Shown here: piece after piece, positions 1 to 29,139 of the stretch
How the letters are laid out: each line of letters opens with the position of its first letter
How positions within the stretch are numbered: the stretch's first letter is position 1
Assembly (NCBI GenBank): GCA_035289145.1
Contig: DATDXZ010000063.1
Coordinates: forward strand, 1-29,139
DNA: 29,139 nucleotides
Source: Candidatus Nanoarchaeia archaeon
Lineage (GTDB): Archaea > Nanobdellota > Nanobdellia > SCGC-AAA011-G17 > UBA489
Reading direction: 5' to 3'
Notes under the pieces: model-generated
Seen by the model: only the letters and a program-made list of their open reading frames with translations
The model's database searches: none
What the model was told of the DNA's origin: nothing
Program-made: the position numbers and the translations under genes

Positions 1-113
1 TGCTCAAGCGAAGAGCAGGCAGCGCGGTACGTGCCGTAACAGTGCGGATGCAAAATAGAGAAGTAAGCTTCAAGATACTTGCATGCTCTGCATTGCGGAG
101 AGCAATAAGTTCC

Positions 114-212
114 CTATTCAGGGAACTTTTCTACAGAGCCATTTACAGAGCATCCTGATACTAATAGCATCGTCGCAATAATTCCTAATAAGCATAATTG
201 TTTATTCATCAT
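114..212 (-). CDS. Short lipoprotein-like ORF (32 aa), possibly truncated
   Basis: Manual translation MMNKQLCLLGIIATMLLVSGCSVNGSVEKFPE*: hydrophobic stretch plus lipobox VSGC; TATA-like tatatata about 22 nt upstream on the minus strand; ends in TAG at 114-116. Confidence 0.45.
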   Translation of the reverse strand: MMNKQLCLLGIIATMLLVSGCSVNGSVEKFPE

Positions 213-16100: not shown

Positions 16101-17930
16101 ATGAGCTGGGGCGTTTATTCTTCTGACAAGGCACTGTTGCCTCCTTTAGTATACTCTAATAAAAAAACCCAGGAAAGCGTGGTTGATGAGATTGAGCAAG
16201 CGATTAAAGAAGGCCATAAGATTATCTTTGTGCATGGCAAATGTGGCAGCGGAAAAAGCCTGATCGGATTGGAATTGGCAAGACGACTAGGAAAAGCATC
16301 AGTTGTTGTTCCTGTGAAATATCTACAGAAGCAATATGAAGAAGATTACACTAATAAGATGTATCTGCAAAAAGACACTGGAGAAAAACTTAAGATTACA
16401 ATTTTAACAGGCAGAAATAATCATCAATGCCTCTATGATTCGCAACATACTGCTGATCATCATCTTCTGCCCTGCACTGTTGAGATCAAAAAAGAAAACT
16501 TACAACTTTTGGATAAATATCTAGAAGAAAATCCCATGGTAGATGTCGAGAACTTTAAAAATATTGACGATATCCGAAGAGTTTCTGTAGCAGCTGCCTG
16601 CCCTTTTTGGAGCCCTGTCATCAACAAAGACTGGTTTGGCAATGACTATGGATTGAAAGACGCACAACAAGTAGATTATGAGGGACTCAGGAACAGACAA
16701 TTCGCCTACTTCAGAAGAAAACCTGGCTGCACCTATTATGCGCAATTCATGAGCTATATCACCGCTGACGTGCTAGTTTTTAACAGCAAAAAATACGAAA
16801 TAGAAGTCACGATGGACAGAAAACCTGTCACTGCTGTTGAAATTATTGATGAATGCGATGAATTCTTGGATAACTTCAGCAACGAGAAGAGATTTAACCT
16901 AGACATTCTCTCTACAAAGCTTAATTCGCTTATTCAACAATGCAAGGACGAAGAGACCAAAGAAGCATTATTGGATATCAGCGATCAAGCTCAAAAATTC
17001 CTGAGGTCAACTACCTTTGACTCTTTTTTGCAACAAGAAAAAGTTTTTTCCTTCAAGAACTCACAGGCATGGGAACTTTTGAATACTCTACTGCAACATG
17101 ACAAGATCCTGGAATATGAGGAATTAGAGCCATATATCATGATTGCGAAATATTTTGAACACCTCCAAGAAGACACCTATTATACCTATTATCACGACAG
17201 AAAAAATTATAGAGGCATCTTACTGGTCAATGTGAATCTAGAAAAGAAGTTCAAAGAGTTCTTGGAGAAAAACAAAGTATTTGTGCTCATGAGCGGGACT
17301 CTGCATAGCAGAAAAGTTTTGGAAACAGTTTTTGGCATTACTGAGTTCAAGACTATCACGGCAGAAACTAAGGACATGGGCACAGCGAAGAAAACTTTTA
17401 CACGACTGGAGAGAAACTTTCGATACAAAGAATTTGAAGACGGCAGATTGACTAAAGAAGATTATTTGAAAGCCCTAGCAAAATGTTTAGAAGTAGCAGA
17501 AAAACCTGTTCTTGTGCATGTGAATAGCTATGCTGATCTCCCTAGCGAAGAGGAAAAACAACAGTACAACTTAACTTCTATCCAAAGCCGCGAGAAACTA
17601 GAAGAGCAACAGGAAAAATACAAACAAGGAGAATTACTGCAGATGTTTAAAGAGGGCAAAATACCTATTTTATATTCTACTCGCTGCTCACGAGGTGTAG
17701 ACTTTCCAGGAGACATGTGCAGAAGCATAGTCTTTACTAAATATCCTTATCCCAGCATGCATTCTTTATTTTGGAAAGTCTTGAAGCTCAGCAGACCTGA
17801 ACACTTTATGGACTTCTATTTTGATAAAGCACGAAGAGAATTTTTGCAACGCGTTTATAGAGGACTGCGTTTTCCAGAAGACAAAGTCACTCTCTTAAGT
17901 CCTGATATGAAAGTATTAGAAAGCTTCTGA
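16101..17930 (+). CDS. DinG/XPD(Rad3)-like SF2 helicase with Fe-S cysteines
   Basis: GKCGSGKS, GRNNHQC, LPC, ACPFW, GCTYY, IIDECD, MSGTL, RGVDFPGD, KYPYP, QRVYRGLR. Confidence 0.88.
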   Translation: MSWGVYSSDKALLPPLVYSNKKTQESVVDEIEQAIKEGHKIIFVHGKCGSGKSLIGLELARRLGKASVVVPVKYLQKQYEEDYTNKMYLQKDTGEKLKITILTGRNNHQCLYDSQHTADHHLLPCTVEIKKENLQLLDKYLEENPMVDVENFKNIDDIRRVSVAAACPFWSPVINKDWFGNDYGLKDAQQVDYEGLRNRQFAYFRRKPGCTYYAQFMSYITADVLVFNSKKYEIEVTMDRKPVTAVEIIDECDEFLDNFSNEKRFNLDILSTKLNSLIQQCKDEETKEALLDISDQAQKFLRSTTFDSFLQQEKVFSFKNSQAWELLNTLLQHDKILEYEELEPYIMIAKYFEHLQEDTYYTYYHDRKNYRGILLVNVNLEKKFKEFLEKNKVFVLMSGTLHSRKVLETVFGITEFKTITAETKDMGTAKKTFTRLERNFRYKEFEDGRLTKEDYLKALAKCLEVAEKPVLVHVNSYADLPSEEEKQQYNLTSIQSREKLEEQQEKYKQGELLQMFKEGKIPILYSTRCSRGVDFPGDMCRSIVFTKYPYPSMHSLFWKVLKLSRPEHFMDFYFDKARREFLQRVYRGLRFPEDKVTLLSPDMKVLESF

Positions 17931-23367: not shown

Positions 23368-23727
23368 ATGCAAACTTTGTTTATTCTTCTCATTTTTATC
23401 TCCTTAGCTCTTTTTCTCTTCTATTTTTTCCGCTACCAGAAGCTTTACCAGCAATATCATAGTTTAGAGTTTACTTATCGCAGCTCGAATGTCAAACATG
23501 GACAACATTGGGAACAATTTGTGCCTTTCATGGAGGACTTTAACAAGGTAGCGCAACGGGAGAATTTTGTTTTCATTGGCATGCCTATTGATGGGATCAG
23601 CTTTGACGATGATGGGATTAAGTTTATAGAGATCAAGACTGGGAAAAGCCAGCTGAACCAGAAACAAAAACAAGTCAAAAAATTGATAGAAGGGAAACAA
23701 GTTGAGTGGATAGAACTGCGATTTTAA
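23368..23727 (+). CDS. Membrane-anchored Holliday-junction-resolvase-like PD-(D/E)xK nuclease (Endonuc_Holl-like)
   Basis: N-terminal TM; GQHWEQFVPF, FIGMPIDGISF, FIEIKTGKSQL. Confidence 0.88.
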   Translation: MQTLFILLIFISLALFLFYFFRYQKLYQQYHSLEFTYRSSNVKHGQHWEQFVPFMEDFNKVAQRENFVFIGMPIDGISFDDDGIKFIEIKTGKSQLNQKQKQVKKLIEGKQVEWIELRF

Positions 23728-25274: not shown

Positions 25275-25318
25275 CAAAAAATAAAAACGCTTTTATATGA
25301 TAAGTGTTTTTTGCGTCT

Positions 25319-26152
25319 ATGGAAGACATAGCGACGTTTGTTGAACCCTCTACTCTGGAGTTTTTTACAAATCTACGAGCTACCAAGCTCATGTATATCA
25401 CCCAAAGAAAAACTGATAATGACATTTCAACAGAAGATCGTTACTTGCAGATTGAGGTCAACATCTTTGTCAGATCTGACATAGGTTATGATCGAGAACA
25501 ATTCCCTACAGAAATCAAAAAAATGCCTCATGGCTCATTACGCACTTTAAAAGAGCTTTTATCTCAAGGCATTGCCAAGAAACTTATTGACAAAGGCGAT
25601 AAAGTCTTGTGCGTAGTTGATGAAAGTTTAGGGATAGGCTACAAAGGCGTGAGCTTTGTCTTTGACATTGATCATGTCCTGGTAAATATCTCTCGTCATC
25701 GTCTTTCTGACAATATTCAACCAGAAATTCTTGAAGCTGTTATTGACATCGCAACAGAGATTGCTACTGAGGGACGAGAAGGCAAAAAGATTGGCACTGC
25801 TTTTATTATTGGCAACAAGGCTGATATCCTGAAGTATGTGAAACAGCTGGTTTTAAACCCTTTCTTAGGCCATATGGAAAGCAAAATCAAGATTTCTGAT
25901 CCCACTATACGTGAAACTGTCAAAGAGTTTGCTCAATTAGATGGAGTCTATATTCTTGATACTGACGGCAGCATTATCACTAGCTGTGCGTATTTAGACG
26001 TCCCGACCGATGGCATTGAACTTCCAGGACTGGGCACGAAGCACTTGAACTGCGCAGCCATTACCAAACATACTGACAGTGTAGCTGTTGTGGTCTCTTC
26101 TACGGGCACTATTCGTGTTTTCAAAGACGCCAAGATTGTTATGAAGATTTGA
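25319..26152 (+). CDS. Diadenylate cyclase (DisA_N/DAC domain), archaeal DacZ-like with N-terminal extension
   Basis: EGREGKKIGTAFIIG, KEFAQLDGVYI, GLGTKH, VVVSSTGTIRVF; start ATG 25319 by TATA spacing. Confidence 0.88.
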   Translation: MEDIATFVEPSTLEFFTNLRATKLMYITQRKTDNDISTEDRYLQIEVNIFVRSDIGYDREQFPTEIKKMPHGSLRTLKELLSQGIAKKLIDKGDKVLCVVDESLGIGYKGVSFVFDIDHVLVNISRHRLSDNIQPEILEAVIDIATEIATEGREGKKIGTAFIIGNKADILKYVKQLVLNPFLGHMESKIKISDPTIRETVKEFAQLDGVYILDTDGSIITSCAYLDVPTDGIELPGLGTKHLNCAAITKHTDSVAVVVSSTGTIRVFKDAKIVMKI

Positions 26153-26212: not shown

Positions 26213-27001
26213 ATGGGTAAAATAAAAAGATCTAGGGTAGAAAAATCAACTTCAGATAGTTATGCTCTTAGCTCTCAGCAGATTACTTTTTCACAATTAT
26301 ATACGAAGGCTAGAGAGGAAATTCCGCTTCATTTAGTAAATACAACTGCGTTAAACGCGGTTGCAACTCCTCCTTATGCGGCTCTTGAAGTTGGTCTTGC
26401 TAAAATGACTGATGATATCTCATTGGGGTCTAGATTAACTGCTGCTGGATTAGGTTACGCAGGAATTGCATGGCTTTACTCAAAAGGTAGAGACTTATCA
26501 AAAAGAGTTTTACAGATAACTGATAAATCTAAAGAACGCATACAAGCTGTTCACGATGCTATTTATACAGCAGCTTTTAACGGTGTAGCTTGTTTCCCCC
26601 TTTATTTATGGATGGGTGCTGATTCAAAACAGGCAGCTATTGGATCACTTATTGGTGCAGCAGTATCTGTACCTCTTGGACCAGTACTAGGGTACGCAGT
26701 AGATGCTGCAGGAGAGTTAACTGGCATTAGACCGAATCATAGGATATCTCATTCTTTTGACAGTCTTGCTGAAACGTTGGAAAATCGTAATAGATTAAAA
26801 CCTACGCTTCATTATTTAGCTAACAAATCAAGACGTGTTGGAGAATTTGTGTCAGAATTAAGACCTCGTTCTAAGAAAACCTTAGCTGCTTTATTGTTAA
26901 CAGGTTCAATTGCAGCTACTGCTGGAGTCTATGCTTTAACATCTGATGAAAGTGATACTTCAATTTCAACTCCGCAAACTATTGAGATTCAAAATAAGTA
27001 A
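26213..27001 (+). CDS. AlaE-like (L-alanine exporter family) membrane protein
   Basis: Pattern NTTAL...EVGLAKM...SLGSRL...Y..GRD and GPVLGYAVD recalls AlaE; from memory, not searched. Confidence 0.55.
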   Translation: MGKIKRSRVEKSTSDSYALSSQQITFSQLYTKAREEIPLHLVNTTALNAVATPPYAALEVGLAKMTDDISLGSRLTAAGLGYAGIAWLYSKGRDLSKRVLQITDKSKERIQAVHDAIYTAAFNGVACFPLYLWMGADSKQAAIGSLIGAAVSVPLGPVLGYAVDAAGELTGIRPNHRISHSFDSLAETLENRNRLKPTLHYLANKSRRVGEFVSELRPRSKKTLAALLLTGSIAATAGVYALTSDESDTSISTPQTIEIQNK

Positions 27002-27034: not shown

Positions 27035-27454
27035 ATGACAGAACACAAGAAAAAGAGCAAGTTTAGAAAAACTTTAACAGGTATCAAACGTGTAGCTTTA
27101 GCAGGACTTTTAGGATTAGTAACTGCATGCGGCAATGACACTGATCATGTTTGGATTGTACGACCGAACGCTGCAGAACGCTTTACTCTTACTAGATACG
27201 CAGGATCTGGCAGCGAACCTCGATCTCTCTTTCTTTTTGATTTAGAAGGCGATGGAAAGATAGACCAAGCAGTAGCGACTCGAGGAATAGAATGTTCAAA
27301 CATAGGTTATCTTCGAGGAATTCCTAAAGAACATGTAACATTTTATACTGCTCCGGGCACGCAACCAAGCGACTATGTTATCAGTGGCGTTGCACCTCAA
27401 CCTCTCACTGAAACCCTGGTTATGGAGTTTCTAAACTCTAGTCAAAACAAATAA
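27035..27454 (+). CDS. Lipoprotein of unknown function
   Basis: Basic N-region, hydrophobic core, lipobox LVTAC; DLEGDGKID Ca-loop-like motif. Confidence 0.75.
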   Translation: MTEHKKKSKFRKTLTGIKRVALAGLLGLVTACGNDTDHVWIVRPNAAERFTLTRYAGSGSEPRSLFLFDLEGDGKIDQAVATRGIECSNIGYLRGIPKEHVTFYTAPGTQPSDYVISGVAPQPLTETLVMEFLNSSQNK

Positions 27455-27550: not shown

Positions 27551-27931
27551 ATGACTCAGAACTATAAACACACCATCTTGAATCTCAAAGCTAGAAAAGA
27601 AGACAGAATTCAAGCGGCGTTCCAATTAGAAAACAACGCTGATGACGCGGCGGTAGACGCCTTGGGAAAAGCGTTATTGACTGATCCCAGCCCTATAGTC
27701 AGACATGAATGCGCCTTTTCTCTGGGAGAAACTGGATATCCTGACAAAGCTAGTTCTTATCTCCTGCAGGCTATTCAGACAGACAAAAATATTTTTGTAG
27801 TGCATGAAGCGTTGCTTGCCTTAGCAACTTTAGGCGATGCAAAGTTTATTCCTTTTATTAAACAGTATCTCAAAGATCCACGACCAGAAATTGCAGAATC
27901 TGCGGAAATCGCGTTGGAACGTTTACAATAA
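27551..27931 (+). CDS. HEAT-repeat (PBS-lyase/DOHH-like) protein with two His-Glu motifs
   Basis: VRHECAFSLG (H52-E53), VVHEALLALA (H85-E86), GDAKFIPFIKQYLKDPRPEIAESAEIALERL. Confidence 0.85.
   Translation: MTQNYKHTILNLKARKEDRIQAAFQLENNADDAAVDALGKALLTDPSPIVRHECAFSLGETGYPDKASSYLLQAIQTDKNIFVVHEALLALATLGDAKFIPFIKQYLKDPRPEIAESAEIALERLQ
27845..27921 (+). repeat. 77-bp perfect direct repeat, copy 1 (inside the HEAT gene 3' end)
   Basis: tttattccttttattaaacag...cgcgttggaacg is identical base for base to 28976-29052. Confidence 0.97.
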
Positions 27932-27940
27932 GCTATTTTA

Positions 27941-28363
27941 TTACATTGATCTTGATTTTCCTGACATTCTTAACATGTCTATATTAGTGAATATTTTTAC
28001 TTTTTGTTGTTCTTTGAAATGAGGATCATGAGCCCATATGCCTTCTGCTTTACTAGCAAGACATGCAGCAAGATGCAGTGCATCATCTACATCACTTATG
28101 TCATTTTTACATTCCTCGATATAATCTTGATATTCCTCACGAGGCAGAATTTCTATATACTCAAAAATAAACACACGTAATATCTCAAATTCTTTTTCCG
28201 TTACTTTGATTCTCTTTAACAATTCGTCCTTATGCTCTTCTATTTCTATTAGTGTATAATCCGGTGTTATGAACTCGAAATATTCATCAAAGAGTATCTC
28301 TCTTGAAGTGCCATCTTTTACTAAGGCAGCTATAATCCTATTTGTATCTACGACAATTTTCAC
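27941..28363 (-). CDS. PIN-domain (VapC-like) toxin
   Basis: IVVDTNRIIAAL, DVDDALHLA, IWAHDPHF acidic PIN residues; GTGA overlap with the antitoxin. Confidence 0.9.
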   Translation of the reverse strand: MKIVVDTNRIIAALVKDGTSREILFDEYFEFITPDYTLIEIEEHKDELLKRIKVTEKEFEILRVFIFEYIEILPREEYQDYIEECKNDISDVDDALHLAACLASKAEGIWAHDPHFKEQQKVKIFTNIDMLRMSGKSRSM

Positions 28364-28587
28364 TTGACAAGACCGTGTCTTTTTGCCATTCCATGCTTTA
28401 TTTTATGACCTATTTCTTCTGCATCCTGCTCTGTTAATTCACTATCTGCCAACAGTTTGTCCATGAGCTCTAATTTTCTTGCTTTTTCCCACATCGCTTG
28501 CCTCGCTACTTCACTCCATTTAATCTCCTTATGCTTTTGTATGATATGCTGCAGATCTTCTGGCACTGCTAAGGTCATATTGGTCAT
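28360..28587 (-). CDS. Ribbon-helix-helix antitoxin
   Basis: MTNMTLAVPEDL...IKWSEVARQAM; 4-nt overlap upstream of the PIN gene. Confidence 0.85.
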   Translation of the reverse strand: MTNMTLAVPEDLQHIIQKHKEIKWSEVARQAMWEKARKLELMDKLLADSELTEQDAEEIGHKIKHGMAKRHGLVK

Positions 28588-28975
28588 TGTTCGCCACTCT
28601 CCACATAGTTATGTATATTATGTATTTTTACGTATTTAAATAGTTTATGGTTTTTTTGAGGTATTGTTGAGAAGTTTGCAAAAGTAGGTATCTTCAAAAT
28701 GTAATATGCTAGAAGGTCAGAATTTGATGGTTTTGAAAGGCTATTTCGCGAAAACATGACTTATTCAAAGTTCTCTGTTAATCATCAAAGATTACTTCTT
28801 AGAAATTCTACATAATCACATATTACTTTAGAACGACTTCACTCATATCTTACAGCAATCTATGCACCAAGCCATTGACTACGTTCTTGAGATCATCTCT
28901 ATGTGACAACCAATCCATCTTGTTCTTGGTATAACTGTAACTGCTTGCAGTCCTTGTTATACATGATATGTTAAT

Positions 28976-29052
28976 TTTATTCCTTTTATTAAACAGTATC
29001 TCAAAGATCCACGACCAGAAATTGCAGAATCTGCGGAAATCGCGTTGGAACG
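28976..29052 (+). repeat. 77-bp perfect direct repeat, copy 2 (displaced HEAT gene 3' end, stop at 29060-29062)
   Basis: Identical to 27845-27921, then CGA TTA GAC TAA versus CGT TTA CAA TAA. Confidence 0.97.
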
Positions 29053-29058
29053 ATTAGA

Positions 29059-29139
29059 CTAAGCTTTCATTTGTTTATACCCTTCAAAACCTGCGAGCAA
29101 TACTTTGTTCACGCCCACGAGCGCTCTATTCAAAACTCT
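29059..29139 (-). CDS. 3' end of a gene running off the window
   Basis: RVLNRALVGVNKVLLAGFEGYKQMKA*; its TAG overlaps the TAA of the displaced HEAT 3' end. Confidence 0.55.
   Translation of the reverse strand, partial: RVLNRALVGVNKVLLAGFEGYKQMKA

Follow-up and report, generated by a model that had tools for sequence, protein, structure and literature searches.

Deoxyhypusine hydroxylase (DOHH, EC 1.14.99.29) is known from eukaryotes, with yeast Lia1, fission-yeast Mmd1, and fly Nero among its described members and with the solved structures 4d4z and 4d50 in the PDB. The eukaryotic enzyme is composed of two lobes of four HEAT repeats each, which are joined by a linker in a single chain of around 300 residues. 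For human DOHH, PMC9117371 names H56, H89, E90, H207, H240, and E241 as the anchors of the di-iron centre, and the Glu from every His-Glu pair together with two Gly residues as the binding residues for the side chain of deoxyhypusine, with G214 listed among them. The hypusine papers of 2012, 2016 (PMC5178350), 2018, and 2020 know of no DOHH orthologue in archaea, which bears out the view of an earlier note on the DNA described here that the archaeal hydroxylase of aIF5A had not been identified. A 2026 review adds nothing on archaeal DOHH, and in the literature to late 2026, with subscription journals mostly outside the coverage, no report of archaeal DOHH homologues (DPANN, Asgard, or Heimdall) was found.

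We analysed a stretch of 29,139 nucleotides (named the window), which is located on one contig of an 896-kb archaeal genome that is 83% complete. The nearest named relatives of this genome are Candidatus Woesearchaeota MAGs (DPANN), and the DNA of the window is found in groundwater and soil metagenomes. One forward-strand gene of the window (named the HEAT gene) encodes a 126-residue protein with two His-Glu pairs, H52-E53 and H85-E86, spaced 33 residues apart, and both the open reading frame and the codons confirm this earlier reading. Only generic repeat families are assigned to the protein by Pfam, namely HEAT_2 (E = 1.6e-24) and HEAT_PBS (E = 7.4e-11). Its four PBS-type HEAT repeats make up one lobe, and the first helices of the repeats start with R19-I20, H52-E53, H85-E86, and E116-S117, respectively. 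A TATA-to-ATG spacing of about 26 nt is expected for a leaderless archaeal mRNA, and the position of the TATA-like box ahead of the HEAT gene would fit such a transcript. The coordinates of the features are collected in Table 1.

Table 1 Features of the window and of the 126-residue protein (nucleotide positions in the window, except for the helices)
Feature	Position	Strand	Basis and remarks
Divergent second DHS homologue, 398 aa	19097-20293	+	Pfam DS, E = 2.3e-71; 7.3 kb upstream of the HEAT gene
TATA-like box tataaaaa	27522-27529	+	Read from the sequence; centred about 26 nt before the ATG
Gene of the 126-residue single-lobe DOHH-like protein (HEAT gene)	27551-27931	+	Open reading frame, ATG start
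H52-E53, first His-Glu pair (cat gaa)	27704-27709	+	Aligns with human DOHH H207-E208 (4d4z)
G59 codon, seven residues past H52	27725-27727	+	Aligns with human DOHH G214 (4d4z)
H85-E86, second His-Glu pair (cat gaa)	27803-27808	+	Aligns with human DOHH H240-E241 and H89-E90
Direct repeat, copy 1: last 95 nt of the HEAT gene including the stop	27837-27934	+	Repeat and own-genome search
Inserted cassette between the repeats	27941-28587	-	PIN toxin 27941-28363 (PIN_2, E = 5.4e-19); antitoxin-like ORF 28360-28587
Direct repeat, copy 2: displaced 3' end	28968-29065	+	Repeat and own-genome search; 94% identical, ends in RLD and a stop
Helices of the 126-residue protein	Residues 16-27, 32-44, 48-60, 64-77, 81-93, 97-108, 112-125		AlphaFold2 model

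A phmmer search of all PDB sequences matched the protein to human DOHH (4d4z) at E = 2.3e-19 in three stretches. Residues 17-124 align with residues 178-284 of DOHH, and both His-Glu pairs fall on His-Glu pairs of DOHH. The resemblances to human DOHH that the earlier note had described hold in this alignment. The segment likeness it had drawn is real as well (residues 82-126 against DOHH 91-135), but the DOHH segment concerned is the end of the N lobe and not the C-terminus of the enzyme, as had been thought. Designed alphaRep proteins also match the 126-residue protein among the PDB sequences (E from 1e-22 to 1e-8), and thus this search alone does not decide between DOHH and HEAT proteins in general. 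The AlphaFold2 model, with a pLDDT of 96, consists of seven long helices and a short N-terminal one. Its best match among the solved structures is human DOHH, with a TM score of 0.89 and an rmsd of 1.2-1.3 Å over 122 residues at approximately 31% identity. The designed HEAT proteins rank behind human DOHH in the fold search with rmsd values of 1.6-6.8 Å, and the top 30 fold matches in Swiss-Prot are all DOHH.

A profile of 23 family members was run on 1.84 billion representative proteins, and the best 150 were rescored for each lobe. The best lobes of single-lobe proteins (79-147 aa) reached 125-189 bits, those of compact two-lobed proteins (198-292 aa) 81-132 bits, and those of eukaryotic DOHH-type proteins 63-77 bits. 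Two or three His-Glu pairs were found in these lobes, except in one defective two-lobed protein (P0140), the best lobe of which keeps one pair. Among the 150 rescored proteins, nearly all lobes of at least 63 bits carry two or more His-Glu pairs. The long generic HEAT proteins scored at most 53 bits, and 97 of their 101 stretches hold no His-Glu pair. Such motifs thus occur in generic HEAT proteins too, as the earlier note had cautioned, but two pairs were found in only one of the 101 stretches. A maximum-likelihood tree built from 107 lobes splits the 98 with His-Glu pairs from the nine generic HEAT stretches with an SH-aLRT support of 89, and by profile and tree, the comparison which had been proposed for this protein, it sides with the DOHH lobes. 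The NCBIfam models of NblB and of the YibA-like lyases (PRK09687) gave 22.4 and 18.1 bits against cut-offs of 300 and 275, and membership in the PBS-lyase or NblB families was excluded since these scores lie far under the cut-offs. Based on sequence, profile score, fold, and tree, we conclude with high confidence that the 126-residue protein is a single-lobe member of the DOHH family and not a generic HEAT protein.

The search for relatives yielded 223 homologues of 114-159 residues from Woese-, Pace-, and Nanoarchaeota, which are 55-86% identical, and a few of them carry the automatic JGI name 'deoxyhypusine monooxygenase'. S47, V50, E53, G59, E60, V83, H85, and S117 are invariant in 109 aligned homologues, and H52, E86, and E116 occur in at least 90% of them. 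The His-Glu pairs are conserved among orthologues, on which the earlier proposal had depended, and chance does not account for the pattern. H52-E53 and G59 are also invariant in smaller sets of 23 and 20 sequences, and the Gly matching G59 never varies in either lobe across 36 two-lobed proteins. H52, E53, G59, H85, and E86 correspond to the residues of DOHH that anchor the di-iron centre and bind deoxyhypusine (PMC9117371). The dN/dS ratio of the HEAT gene against two same-genus orthologues is 0.05-0.06, with synonymous sites near saturation, and the gene is under strong purifying selection.

Eight repeats in two symmetric lobes are absent from the 126-residue chain, and with one lobe per chain a two-lobed unit can arise only by the pairing of two chains. 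Each chain provides two His-Glu pairs at DOHH positions, and four would be present only if the predicted homodimer is real. This homodimer, which the earlier note had put forward, is predicted with confidence: the ipSAE was 0.75 in three runs versus 0.01 for the best of three controls. The mark of 0.75 was reached by 20 of 30 same-chain pairs and by 1 of 23 single chains in calibration, which applies only roughly here, where a custom alignment was supplied. The predicted interface is symmetric and is formed by residues 15-18, 20, 47-49, 80, 82, 85, 113, 116-117, 119-120, and 123-124. It lies at the starts of the first helices, the site of the His-Glu pairs, and includes H85 and the residues before H52. 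Conserved columns account for 10 of the 18 interface residues versus 32 of the 108 others (one-sided Fisher p = 0.03). The confident prediction may reflect the memory of the model for the solved two-lobed DOHH structure. The functional form of the protein is probably a dimer of two identical chains. A heterodimer with a different second lobe was also considered and was rejected, since no second HEAT_2 protein was found in the genome (83% complete) and the HEAT gene is its sole HEAT_2 match.

The 3' end of the HEAT gene is covered by one of two 98-nt direct repeats, which bracket a cassette of 1.03 kb. The gene stayed intact despite this insertion, as the earlier note had read it: the end in RLQ and a stop is kept, and the displaced copy differs from it (Table 1). 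One part of the cassette (approximately 28663-28779) has a 91% match on another contig (C46) of the genome, and the stretch 28822-28880 is similar to the sequence flanking the orthologue on its 3' side in a same-genus genome (G003, 88%). No integrase was found between the repeats (27837-29065).

The earlier note had further pointed to a DHS homologue about 7 kb upstream. Such a gene is present, but a conserved link to the HEAT gene is not. The canonical DHS of the same genome is encoded on another contig (C26) and scores 418 bits, compared with 241 bits for the DHS in the window, and the two proteins are 25% identical. To any DHS in 40 relatives, the window DHS is at most 34% identical. It is located in a segment of around 5 kb (approximately 18.0-23.3 kb), which is missing from a same-genus genome (G002): there, the homologue of 23368-23727 comes next after the helicase gene (homologue of 16101-17930), less than 0.7 kb away. 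The window DHS may be horizontally acquired. The same segment also holds the gene of a 702-residue protein with a CarboxypepD_reg domain. A DHS gene occurs within 6 kb at only one of about 54 other HEAT-gene loci (G011), which is about the chance expectation. We therefore discarded the linkage of the HEAT gene with DHS as evidence, given the divergent second copy, the absence of the segment in G002, and this single locus.

A diadenylate cyclase gene (DAC domain) is located at 25304-26152 on the forward strand of the window. In G002, it is 40 bp from the HEAT gene, and in the window two open reading frames (26213-27001 and 27035-27454) lie between them. By clustering of open reading frames, no neighbour is conserved in more than 6 of about 50 loci, and no link with aIF5A beyond chance was found. 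One cluster present at eight loci is an antisense open reading frame that overlaps the HEAT gene itself. A look-up of expression data returned no RNA run for the HEAT gene. In the genome of the window, which is 83% complete, aIF5A was not found by PF01287 or TIGR00037, and it is present in all five of five relatives that carry the HEAT gene.

The HEAT gene is present in 7 of the 40 closest relatives (one copy truncated) and has about five true matches (one with internal stops) in 300 genomes of the phylum that are at least 90% complete. It was also found in 9 of 201 Asgard genomes and in 60, mostly of 1.4-1.9 Mb, of 351 genomes of the phylum holding a Marsarchaeota carrier. The named carriers in the species collection include Woese-, Pace-, and Nanoarchaeota, Heimdallarchaeota, Bathyarchaeia, and Marsarchaeota. 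Two decayed copies were observed: the match in one same-genus genome (G004, contig C9, 11276-11470) spans residues 62-126 only, and the other (G249, contig C31, 17498-17794) contains two TGA stops and one TAA stop. Both copies are in keeping with an accessory gene which some lineages are losing. To our knowledge, DHS and aIF5A are general in archaea, unlike the rare and patchy HEAT gene. Many of the carrier lineages respire or encounter oxygen, as would suit an enzyme that depends on O2, and the names of several carrier MAGs, such as RIFCSPHIGHO2 and Baikal-deep, may point to oxygenated waters. On the other side, many DPANN archaea live at low oxygen, which counts against an O2-dependent hydroxylase. 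Sulfolobus acidocaldarius has no HEAT_2 match, though the HEAT_2 model detects the window gene at 54.8 bits, and this species is among the archaea in which hypusine has been detected (PMC5178350). Another archaeal hydroxylase must therefore exist. With these counts and Sulfolobus lacking a HEAT_2 match, the idea that the HEAT gene encodes the general archaeal hydroxylase of aIF5A does not stand, and its product would at best be a lineage-restricted hydroxylase.

The lobe tree also bears on the origin of the two-lobed enzymes. The N and C lobes of the eukaryotic proteins form one clade (support 99), the N and C lobes of Heimdallarchaeota cluster with Heimdall single-lobe proteins (87), and a third two-lobed group is placed with single-lobe relatives of its own (100). 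A single lobe duplication common to eukaryotes and Heimdallarchaeota is disfavoured, as a tree that unites their C lobes is worse by 62 log-likelihood units (AU p = 0.02, for a group named post hoc). The lobe sequences suggest that single lobes were doubled into one chain on at least three separate occasions, a pattern which gene conversion between the lobes could also produce. Repeated fusion is expected if the single-lobe form already acts as a pair, and it speaks for two lobes as the working unit. From the lobe tree and the AU test, the single-lobe forms resemble the pre-duplication state, in agreement with the other possibility raised in the earlier note.

The two-lobed DOHH-like proteins of Heimdallarchaeota and Kariarchaeaceae (P0122-P0132 and L065) are 244-265 residues long and carry all four His-Glu pairs, and Heimdallarchaeota also encode single-lobe forms (L055, L056, L059, and L060). 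The model of a 258-residue Heimdall protein superimposes on the whole of human DOHH with a TM score of 0.86, and other eight-repeat HEAT proteins reach at most 0.46 against this model. The third two-lobed group (P0135, P0136, P0145, P0150, P0155, and P0158) has 252-292 residues and shares a PYRGxxEF-like C-terminal tail with its single-lobe relatives of 144-147 residues (L067, L068, and P0229). L067 is encoded in a complete Woesearchaeota genome of 1.54 Mb. The record of L068 is labelled as uncultured Methanosarcinales, with a genome of around 1.1 Mb; the protein groups with Woesearchaeota, and the label may be wrong. A further two-lobed His-Glu protein (P0194, 363 aa, from a Logan contig) has a hydrophobic N-terminus that resembles a signal peptide and groups with single-lobe proteins of Marsarchaeota and Bathyarchaeia. 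If exported, it could not act on a translation factor.

For the HEAT protein, the most economical reading is that of a homodimeric, di-iron, O2-dependent hydroxylase of deoxyhypusine-aIF5A, which we propose tentatively and rate at a little under an even chance. Two identical chains of 126 residues would pair face to face, and the four His-Glu pairs of the dimer (two per chain, H52-E53 and H85-E86) would hold a di-iron centre between the lobes, in the same arrangement as between the N and C lobes of the single chain of eukaryotic DOHH. Deoxyhypusine synthase would place the deoxyhypusine side chain on aIF5A, and the dimer would then activate O2 and hydroxylate deoxyhypusine to hypusine. This hydroxylation would be an optional step, which is kept only in some oxygen-exposed lineages. 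The iron binding, the oxygen chemistry, and the aIF5A substrate are inferred. A broader evolutionary reading, conceivable and in our estimation somewhat less likely than not, would take the single-lobe proteins as the ancestral DOHH. They would be homodimeric di-iron hydroxylases with which oxygen-exposed archaea, among them some DPANN, Heimdallarchaeota, Marsarchaeota, and Bathyarchaeia, already make hypusine on aIF5A, and eukaryotic DOHH would have arisen from them by duplication and fusion, as would, independently, the two-lobed proteins of Heimdallarchaeota and of the third archaeal group.

The choice of substrate is where the most serious competing explanation differs. The protein could be a homodimeric di-iron enzyme of the DOHH family which acts on something other than aIF5A, such as a free polyamine or another aminobutylated or lysine-derived group, or which reduces O2 or peroxide for protection; we regard this as somewhat unlikely, these candidates included. 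Such an enzyme would also keep the metal-binding residues, and the distribution of the HEAT gene does not track DHS and aIF5A, to neither of which it has a conserved link. Hypusine is made by Sulfolobus without a HEAT_2 family match, and an identity of only around 30% between the archaeal and eukaryotic lobes leaves room for a different specificity. Nevertheless, the Glu and Gly residues that bind deoxyhypusine in human DOHH are also invariant or nearly so in the archaeal family, and no other substrate is known for any protein of the DOHH family (PMC9117371). Deoxyhypusine-aIF5A should moreover be present, given the canonical DHS of the genome and the aIF5A of all five carrier relatives.

Explanations that dispense with the chemistry or with the dimer fare worse against the same data. 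A HEAT scaffold or adaptor without catalytic function, similar to the PBS-lyase or alphaRep proteins, in which the His-Glu pairs are structural or incidental, would be in line with the generic Pfam families, with the matches to the designed alphaReps, which embody a PBS-type HEAT consensus, and with the weak NCBIfam matches to NblB and the YibA-like lyases. These NCBIfam matches (22 and 18 bits) are nevertheless far from their cut-offs of 300 and 275, generic HEAT stretches do not exceed 53 bits and almost never hold two His-Glu pairs (1 of 101), and among HEAT structures that of DOHH comes nearest to the fold. An identity of 55-86% across DPANN orders with a dN/dS of 0.05 would also be unusual for a plain scaffold, and we consider this explanation quite improbable. 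A monomer, or a chain with an unrelated partner, in which the two His-Glu pairs bind one metal ion, appears very improbable. The dimer is only a model, and the two His and two Glu residues of one lobe could hold a single metal, but the dimer score is far above those of the controls, the interface is enriched in conserved residues, and two-lobed fusions arose repeatedly. Neither a second HEAT protein in the genome nor a conserved neighbour offers itself as the partner.

Some archaea contain hypusine, and the family described here provides a concrete and expressible candidate for the missing archaeal DOHH. It is rare in DPANN, and with no HEAT_2 match in Sulfolobus it cannot explain all archaeal hypusine. 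If the proposed function is true, the homodimeric half-enzyme would show how the site of a di-iron oxygenase can be built between two copies of one protein-binding repeat module, and eukaryotic DOHH would trace back to a single-lobe archaeal ancestor.

Among described systems, the single-lobe protein shares its repeat type (HEAT_PBS and HEAT_2) with CpcE/CpcF, NblB, E. coli YibA, and the designed alphaReps, and the stack of helical hairpins in alphaRep is similar to that of the window protein (TM around 0.8). The PBS-lyase HEAT and alphaRep proteins are, however, without conserved His-Glu pairs and have far lower profile scores, and their repeats stack into one continuous solenoid instead of a facing pair of lobes (TM at most 0.46 to the two-lobed archaeal model). 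The closest two-lobed relatives are the proteins of Heimdallarchaeota and Kariarchaeaceae, with 110-132 bits per lobe and a clade shared with the window protein (support 95), which are named 'HEAT repeat domain-containing protein' or, automatically, 'deoxyhypusine monooxygenase'. Unlike the window protein, they have two lobes fused in one chain. With a lobe of eukaryotic DOHH, the 126-residue protein has in common the PBS-type HEAT hairpins, the order of the first-helix motifs (R-x, H-E, H-E, and E-S/T), the spacing of 33 residues from one His-Glu pair to the other, and a Gly at the seventh position past the first His. The archaeal lobes form a clade separate from the one with both eukaryotic DOHH lobes. 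The archaeal chain of 126 residues equals one lobe of the two in the eukaryotic enzyme, and with two His-Glu pairs per chain a di-iron site would need a homodimer, unlike in eukaryotic DOHH.
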